From NCBI GenBank assembly GCA_036625875.1, contig JAZKSW010000001.1, positions 1 to 44,957 on the forward strand: 44,957 nt of DNA, in the 5' to 3' direction. A model generated the notes under the pieces. The model was not told where the DNA came from. It saw only the letters and a program-made list of their open reading frames with translations, and ran no database searches. Made by a program: the position numbers and the translations under genes. Below, piece after piece: positions 42,177-42,494 of the stretch (position 1 is its first letter; the number at the start of each line of letters is the position of its first letter). This DNA is from Minisyncoccota bacterium (GTDB lineage: Bacteria > Patescibacteriota > Minisyncoccia > Minisyncoccales > JAZKSW01).

Positions 42177-42494
42177 ACTTCTTACTTATTCTATTTTATT
42201 ACTTTTAAGCATCCTTATCAACTAAATTCAACCCCCCCAAAGCTTACTTTATTATACTCTCCTACTACAAACCTTCAACCAAGGAACTTGTGCTGAGCGT
42301 AGCCGAAGTAAAAACCCGAGAGTGCTCTACCGCAGTACCACGTCGGGTACACGACATAGCTCTCGGGTAAAATAGAATAAACCCCATATACATAGAGTTT
42401 TGGACTGGTTAAACCAATCCAAAACTGTGGTGCATGCTCCGCCCCGCACCTTATAAGGTGCGGGATAAATTTACCAGACGATGTTCGAACTGCT
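42177..42494 (-). repeat. Terminator-promoter module, copy C (expanded by three hairpin insertions)
   Basis: The 3' box starts 1 nt after the stop at 42495. Insert hairpins at 42443-42464, 42396-42426 and inside the terminator loop (42315-42367). -35 at 42273-42278 and -10 at 42251-42256. Confidence 0.85.

Follow-up and report, generated by a model that had tools for sequence, protein, structure and literature searches.

The locus and its repeated cassette

The window is the whole contig of 44,957 nt, with a G+C content of 37%, and its genes are cellular and lie almost all on the minus strand. They encode ribonucleotide reductase, UvrD, an AddA-type helicase-nuclease, SOD, Fur, transporters and an aldehyde dehydrogenase (ALDH), among others. 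No tRNA or tmRNA was detected in the contig by ARAGORN, and neither Phage_integrase nor a transposase was found among the 40 contig ORFs scanned. Positions 42177-42494 are the entire gap between two minus-strand ORFs (Table 1). The upstream ORF, of 294 aa, is an orphan for which database search returns only itself, and the downstream one encodes a GDSL lipase. The best homologues of the GDSL lipase and of the ALDH share 70% and 67% identity with them, respectively, and the homologue loci (L007-L017, L097 and L098) lack the 30-nt box described below. No orthologue of the sequence in the gap, hereafter copy C, was found through relatives of the 294-aa ORF, the GDSL lipase or the ALDH.

Besides, several features of the contig genes were observed. 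The ALDH (38779-40086) has 435 aa against 477-507 aa in its best homologues, a difference of about 50 aa; its Pfam coverage runs from profile position 29, and a PF26273 glycine-zipper match found in several homologues is missing from it. The short form may reflect an N-terminal truncation or an alternative start. A GDSL homologue at 63% identity (L012/L013) has the archaeal neighbours Nop10, eIF2-alpha, S27e and L44e, and further homologues carry the labels DPANN archaea or CPR bacteria; cross-domain transfer of the lipase among ultrasmall organisms is suggested by these neighbours and labels. On the minority strand, a surface-type protein of 1025 aa with PKD/DUF11 domains (2784-5861, plus strand) contains tandem coding repeats of 51 nt and 162 nt (2916-3068 and 3127-4364) with 65-99% identity.

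Copy C is one member of a repeated cassette, which consists on the minus strand, from 5' to 3', of a box, a short spacer, an intrinsic terminator, a promoter block and a 5'UTR. The box (GCAGTTCGAACGTCGTACGGTAAACGGAGC) is 30 nt long and non-palindromic and begins 1-2 nt past the upstream TAA in copies A and C; about 10 nt ahead of it, stop codon included, are also common to A, B and C. The terminator (ACCCGAGAG-TAGAGCA-CTCTCGGGT-TTTT) shows the G+C-rich stem and U-tract of an intrinsic terminator, sense to the upstream gene, in A, B and C. Those of A and B were recovered by a terminator scan, and the terminators of this type (type 1) fold as hairpins. The promoter block of 40 nt (TTGGTTGAAG...GGAGAGTATAATAAA) matches the sigma70 consensus at 10 of 12 positions in A, B, C and E. 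The use of both signals is predicted from sequence. The conserved core is mostly built of ordinary linear expression signals, and the box is the sole part without an obvious role. Coding was rejected for it, because its frames relative to the upstream stops differ between A and C and the 28-nt insert in copy C is not a multiple of three.

The copies, five to six in number, are restricted to 38.6-45 kb among orphan and accessory ORFs, and A, B and C are complete. Copy A possesses two additional hairpins at 38663-38710, and copy B lies between a 90-aa ORF and the 294-aa ORF. All that A and B have in common is the cassette; their similarity sets in about 10 nt ahead of the box and ends about 15 nt beyond the start codon. 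It takes in the five initial codons of the downstream ORF, and the flanking proteins are otherwise unrelated, so that the 193-aa ORF after A and the 294-aa ORF after B were rejected as paralogues. Copy E runs off the contig within its terminator, as would be expected if the assembly had broken at a repeat. The array probably continues beyond 44957 with more copies.

Other repeats were observed in the same region. A second terminator-plus-promoter repeat (GAAAAGAGGGCAGTTTTTTGTTAGAAT), with a terminator and an extended -10 box ((G)CTGTCTTCGAAAAGAGGGCAGTTTTTTGTTAGAAT), occurs at 41466-41501 and 40097-40129, ahead of the LMW phosphatase and ALDH genes; its terminator part also follows the box in a foreign locus (L003, ~878-919). 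A perfect 16-bp palindrome (TGTTTCACGTGAAACA, 36800-36815) is located upstream of a SIMPL/DUF541 gene, and a related GTTTCATGTGAAAC lies in module A at 38697-38710, with a partial one at 41530-41540. These palindromes may be candidate operators for a regulator.

Table 1. Genes flanking copy C, cassette copies of the contig and parts of copy C.
Feature	Position	Strand	Description
294-aa ORF	42495-43379	-	Upstream of copy C; TAA stop 42495-42497
GDSL lipase gene	41580-42176	-	Downstream of copy C
Copy A	38621-38776	-	Box 38747-38776, terminator 38713-38741, promoter 38621-38661; between ALDH gene and 193-aa ORF
Copy B	43418-43523	-	Shortest copy; box 43495-43523, terminator 43461-43489, promoter 43418-43457
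Copy D	43866-43900	-	Promoter block alone; no box, no type-1 terminator
Copy E	44900-44957	-	Promoter 44900-44939 and terminator 3' half 44943-44957; ends with contig
Copy F	41529-41565	-	Decayed type-1 terminator remnant downstream of GDSL gene
Copy C, box 5' part	42470-42493	-	GCAGTTCGAACATCGTCTGGTAAA; starts 1 nt past TAA of 294-aa ORF
Copy C, insert 1	42442-42469	-	28 nt; hairpin 42443-42464, in variable part of box
Copy C, box 3' part	42436-42441	-	CGGAGC; GGAGC nearly invariant in family
Copy C, insert 2	42369-42428	-	60 nt; box-to-terminator spacer; 14-bp hairpin 42396-42426
Copy C, terminator	42310-42368	-	Intrinsic; stem ACCCGAGAG 42360-42368 with CTCTCGGGT 42314-42322; U-tract 42310-42313
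Copy C, insert 3	42330-42359	-	30 nt; terminator loop; hairpin 42337-42360
Copy C, promoter block	42243-42282	-	TTGGTTGAAGGTTTGTAGTAGGAGAGTATAATAAAGTAAG; -35 42273-42278, -10 42251-42256; predicted for GDSL lipase gene

Three hairpin inserts in copy C

The three complete copies were aligned on the minus strand using MAFFT (A, 38560-38800; B, 43355-43550; C, 42160-42510). The initial annotation had described copy C as carrying three insertions relative to A and B, and the alignment together with exact string coordinates bears this out, including its coordinates and its reading of the strand. The 28-nt insert that divides GGTAAA from CGGAGC is itself a hairpin, as had been claimed (CCCGCACC-TTATAA-GGTGCGGG; -18.4 kcal/mol, z -4.0, 0/200 shuffles). 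The second insert, placed between CGGAGCATGCACC and ACCCGAGAG, measures 60 nt instead of the about 62 nt given earlier. Its presence and its hairpin stand, and so does the statement that its one departure from Watson-Crick pairing reads as G.U in the minus-strand RNA; folding is weaker on the plus strand (-18.6 kcal/mol sense, z -4.9, vs -15.3). The 30-nt insert in the terminator loop was also recovered at the expected place, and it contains a further hairpin absent from the annotation, with 9 bp including 3 G.U (-11.5 kcal/mol sense vs -6.6 antisense). Over a stretch of 211 nt, copy C folds with -79.2 kcal/mol vs -56.0 +/- 4.2 for shuffles (z -5.5). The hairpins of copy C and the spacer hairpin of the foreign locus L004 contain seven non-Watson-Crick pairs in total; read on the sense strand, each of them is G.U, and A.C does not occur.

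The inserts of copy C occupy only sites that are variable among family members. The first falls in box positions 20-25, a stretch wholly different between the alpha boxes and the diverged beta boxes of the foreign locus L002. The spacer holding the second has 5-9 nt in most copies and was enlarged separately in L004 (43 nt with a hairpin, -12.0 kcal/mol sense vs -5.0 antisense) and in copy 4 of L002 (~36 nt). Despite the third insert in its loop, the terminator keeps its 9-bp base stem and TTTT intact (-26.9 kcal/mol). In addition, only three positions in the box of copy C, 12, 17 and 18, depart from the alpha consensus, and all three are variable among the L002 beta boxes as well; two of these substitutions are the beta bases, and every family-invariant box position is retained.

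A decaying copy, the hairpins of which are neutral, functionless insertions of small palindromic mobile elements or products of template switching, could also look enlarged. ERIC-type intergenic repeats exist in long and short forms differing by insertions at fixed internal sites, and such forms support decay here; copy C is also the most divergent copy of the contig (three substitutions and a split box), and extra hairpins are found in copy A and L004 as well. Nevertheless, blastn-short of each insert against the contig and related loci (~170 kb) returned only the self-match, and inspection of the insert edges revealed neither target-site duplications nor terminal repeats, inverted ones included. 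Thus the scattering of the inserts as copies of an unrelated small repeat, which the initial annotation had named as a finding that would overturn its view, was not observed in the sequence compared. The extra hairpins of A and L004 likewise have no second copy in the contig or the ~170 kb of related loci. The intact invariant box positions, terminator base stem, U-tract and promoter, together with the seven of seven G.U pairs on the sense strand, also speak against decay, which is very improbable in our judgement. Judged by these features, copy C is an enlarged yet intact member of the cassette family, not a wreck. It shows which positions of the unit bear large insertions and hence which positions likely matter, and this is a modest result.

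Box-bearing loci in other genomes

The exact alpha-box pattern was scanned in 185,579 species-representative genomes and in JGI metagenome records, and was recovered only from L001 (the same locus as L005), L002, L003, L004 and L006. The match in L006 and one at the end of L003 were judged to be chance, since no terminator follows them and the L003 one lies in a convergent ORF. The foreign box-bearing loci belong to uncultured Candidatus Saccharibacteria MAGs, on which basis the contig was taken as part of a Saccharibacteria/CPR chromosome, and each of the two GTDB genomes possessing the exact alpha pattern has one occurrence of it. All genuine foreign boxes are sense to the flanking genes and have a terminator hairpin 5-45 nt downstream. 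The sequence of these terminators is unlike that of the contig, and G-C, A-U and G.U changes preserve the pairing of the stem. These loci have no DNA other than the box in common with the contig, except for short terminator/promoter matches in L003 and L004. Ten copies with seven distinct boxes share the invariant positions CAG.TC.AAC.TCGT...G......GGA.C.

A four-module array was revealed in L002 by a sensitive profile search, with an alpha box at 1726 and diverged beta boxes at 2490, 3267 and 4083. A promoter is located after each module, the modules separate an MNT-HepT pair, an NYN gene and a DUF6036 unit, and the array is flanked by lipoate ligase and glycogen synthase genes. The four boxes thus stand around three cassettes (n+1 sites for n). 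In L005, the box follows the nucleoside diphosphate kinase gene (NDK), itself equipped with a terminator, and precedes an AbiEii cassette, and in L004 it lies upstream of an MNT gene. The upstream gene's own terminator precedes the box in both L001/L005 and copy 3 of L002; in L005, a plausible promoter (TTGTTA-N16-TACAAT) is present between this terminator and the box. L003 and L004 are 98% identical over 213 nt ending at the last base of the box, after which there is no homology, so that the box marks a recombination junction.

Searches for the module in IMG/VR, INPHARED and PLSDB gave no real match, and looser viral patterns returned only chance matches within coding regions. A phage or plasmid origin was ruled out by this lack of matches in the viral and plasmid collections. 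The box is far too rare to be a DNA uptake sequence.

Two homologue loci deserve description. In the neighbourhood of a GDSL homologue (L009-L011, ~5600-14500), co-oriented SUKH, AEP-like, DUF1706, ApbA, GDSL, AadA_C, HD and glyoxalase genes have the look of a cassette array, and no box is present there. In L097, an array of HIT, 153-aa ORF and GDSL genes contains its own intergenic repeat of ~85 nt (750-1019 and 1482-1734). Read as its reverse complement, this repeat has local similarity to L002 in the 3' half of the box, the spacer and the terminator (0/500 shuffles for the best pair among 12 comparisons). It could be an inverted distant relative of the box or a chance resemblance.

Possible roles: RNA motif, recombination site or exchange cassette

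The initial annotation took the inserts as variable stems on the conserved core of a structured RNA. What holds of this proposal is that the inserts are discrete helices at variable sites and more stable on the sense strand; a structured RNA gene does not emerge from the analysis. A folded conserved core was not borne out, as the core is a non-palindromic box followed by an intrinsic terminator and a sigma70 promoter with 5'UTR. Rfam 15 gave no match at gathering score across the contig and none for the modules at E<=5, so that, together with the ARAGORN result, tRNA, tmRNA and known RNA families are excluded. Pairing of the box with the terminator loop in a pseudoknot was also rejected, since the loops are not conserved. 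The observation is real and more ordinary than was proposed: copy C is an enlarged cassette copy rather than a proven gene for a structured RNA.

The box, spacer and terminator might still make up a discrete small RNA, as a 3'UTR derivative or an independent transcript, with copy C as its long form. In such an RNA, a helix GYUC(K)...GRGY of 4-5 bp would close the box into a loop with the conserved AACRUCGU, followed by variable spacer stems and then the terminator. This candidate helix, the only one outside the terminator, recurs in single-sequence folds and shows additional pair types (UG/CG/UA and GC/GU). Moreover, three independent copies have their spacer enlarged at one fixed point, G.U pairs occur in the spacer hairpins of both C and L004, and the plausible L005 promoter stands just before the box. 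On the RNA side, sense folds beat antisense ones in the hairpins of C and L004, and all copies are sense; a hairpin within the box would hold the two box halves next to each other in a single strand. Nevertheless, the helix, 86% paired with three extra pair types in the 10 copies, has no pair altered on both sides, and 450/500 shuffles equal it. Supported covariation outside the terminator was absent among these copies, in which seven distinct boxes are represented. The consensus fold energy of the box family is just -1.7 kcal/mol, and Rfam provides no match. We therefore regard a small RNA as unlikely.

The box may instead be a DNA recombination site at cassette boundaries, of an att or integron-like type or acting as ssDNA, for which copy C would be a hairpin-tolerant or an inactivated site. 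The sharp L003/L004 junction exactly at the 3' edge of the box fits such a site, and so do the four L002 boxes that enclose three cassettes amid core genes. The alpha pattern is found once per GTDB genome in two genomes, the box lies beside toxin-antitoxin cassettes in L001/L005, L002 and L004, which represent three other genomes, and it is identical across genomes without other common DNA. However, neither integrase nor transposase is encoded in the contig ORFs scanned or in those scanned near the boxes of L002, L004 and L005. By inspection, the box has no dyad symmetry, for which it was rejected as a dif/att core. It was also rejected as an attC, since its GTTCKAAC carries an extra base, no complementary R' follows for R''/R' pairing, and the sole palindrome is the terminator 3' of the box. 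In addition, the L005 cassette is boxed on one side only, a promoter comes with each unit, and the hairpins are more stable on the sense strand, consistent with RNA. A DNA site of this kind is thus rather improbable. Homologous exchange between repeated cassettes would be the simplest account of the junctions.

The reading that we prefer, with about an even chance of being correct, is a portable 3'-end/terminator/promoter cassette, similar to PeSL (promoter-early stem-loop) elements, that also serves as a crossover point, with copy C as one of its members, enlarged and yet intact. The cassette would punctuate an array of co-oriented accessory genes in a CPR genome. The mRNA of the 294-aa ORF would end in a 3' tail made of the box, optional stem-loops and the intrinsic terminator on the minus strand, and from the strong sigma70-type promoter and 5'UTR, transcription would begin anew for the gene that follows. 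Ending one transcript and starting another, the cassette would insulate and express each gene unit. Because identical sequence lies beside unrelated genes, it would also serve as a crossover point for swaps of units. The extra stem-loops of copy C would have survived because they sit at three tolerant positions (the 3' half of the box, the spacer and the terminator loop), and they are likely neutral or stabilise the 3' end. Natural competence of Saccharibacteria is reported (PMC10633639), and competence would provide the incoming DNA for cassette exchange.

Several observations run against this exchange cassette. A terminator and promoter role leaves the near-identity of the 30-nt box across otherwise unrelated genomes unexplained. 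The terminators of the upstream genes in L001/L005 and L002 copy 3 mean that the box there is not simply the 3'UTR of that gene, and the possible inverted relative in L097 would point to a role at the DNA level.

PeSLs are composite terminator/promoter motifs that flank orphan genes in T4-type phages, in which homologous exchange between repeated copies is documented (PMC2839356, PMC4122927). Like them, the cassette is an intergenic composite of ~100 bp with a stem-loop terminator and a strong sigma70-like promoter; its copies separate small orphan or accessory genes within a plastic region, it provides expression signals for each gene unit, and its shared sequence is an exchange point amid unrelated flanks. 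In contrast to PeSLs, the cassette resides in a cellular CPR genome, its conserved box of 30 nt across genomes has no PeSL counterpart, and the junction lies at the box, not in the promoter or stem-loop. Mini-circles are a feature of the PeSL system. By analogy, the cassette would work like a PeSL, yet it is no member of that group, as its genes are cellular and no phage or viral match was found.

The ERIC/IRU, BOX, REP/BIME and Correia families are modular intergenic repeats that are co-transcribed with flanking genes. The cassette resembles them as a short repeat in presumably transcribed intergenic DNA with the potential to form mRNA hairpins and with long and short forms arising from discrete inserts at fixed internal sites. 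Those families are largely palindromic, with many dispersed copies in both orientations, whereas the box is non-palindromic and occurs in a small number of clustered copies, all of them sense, and the unit includes a promoter.

Integrons likewise consist of co-oriented arrays of small accessory genes, including toxin-antitoxin genes, with a repeated site by the stop codon and a hairpin region of variable length in the sites, and L002 with its n+1 sites for n cassettes is similar. The cassette differs in having neither the RYYYAAC/GTTRRRY inverted cores nor an imperfect palindrome spanning the site; no integrase was found among the scanned ORFs, and every unit includes a promoter and a terminator. 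Near-identical promoter regions before non-homologous genes, here in A-E and L004, are also typical of reused or mobile promoters (PMC3575422), from which the cassette differs in that its promoter is accompanied by a terminator and a 3'-end box and its copies are arrayed in one locus.

An undescribed gene-cassette system of Saccharibacteria, in which units are swapped at the box by a dedicated mechanism, or a new class of 3'-end RNA motif would go further than the exchange cassette and seems improbable to us. If the former were true, a recombinase or the recognition of ssDNA or RNA would insert and excise accessory and toxin-antitoxin units, and variable hairpins would be tolerated beside the recognition motif as in attC. 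If the latter were true, the motif would tag the mRNAs of accessory and toxin-antitoxin cassettes.

On sequence grounds, the box is notable in its own right, being rare, conserved across genomes, always accompanied by a terminator and situated at the exact edge of strain-specific cassettes. An RNA tag, the core of a small RNA and a recombination site are candidate roles for it. CPR bacteria have tiny genomes, and the way they gain and shuffle accessory genes is poorly understood. For naturally competent Saccharibacteria, a portable unit of box, terminator and promoter would be a simple and testable plug-and-play mechanism of gene exchange, and the box would be a search handle for variable loci in metagenomes.

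Two further observations concern the box. Twelve of its bases (TACGGTAAACGG) occur at 33563-33574 on the plus strand, inside the minus-strand Fur gene, so that the Fur mRNA is perfectly complementary to 12 nt of the box; ~0.1 matches are expected by chance. An 83-aa protein with a single RRM is encoded at 35663-35914, ~3 kb from the array, and would be a candidate for binding the box, should the latter act as RNA.
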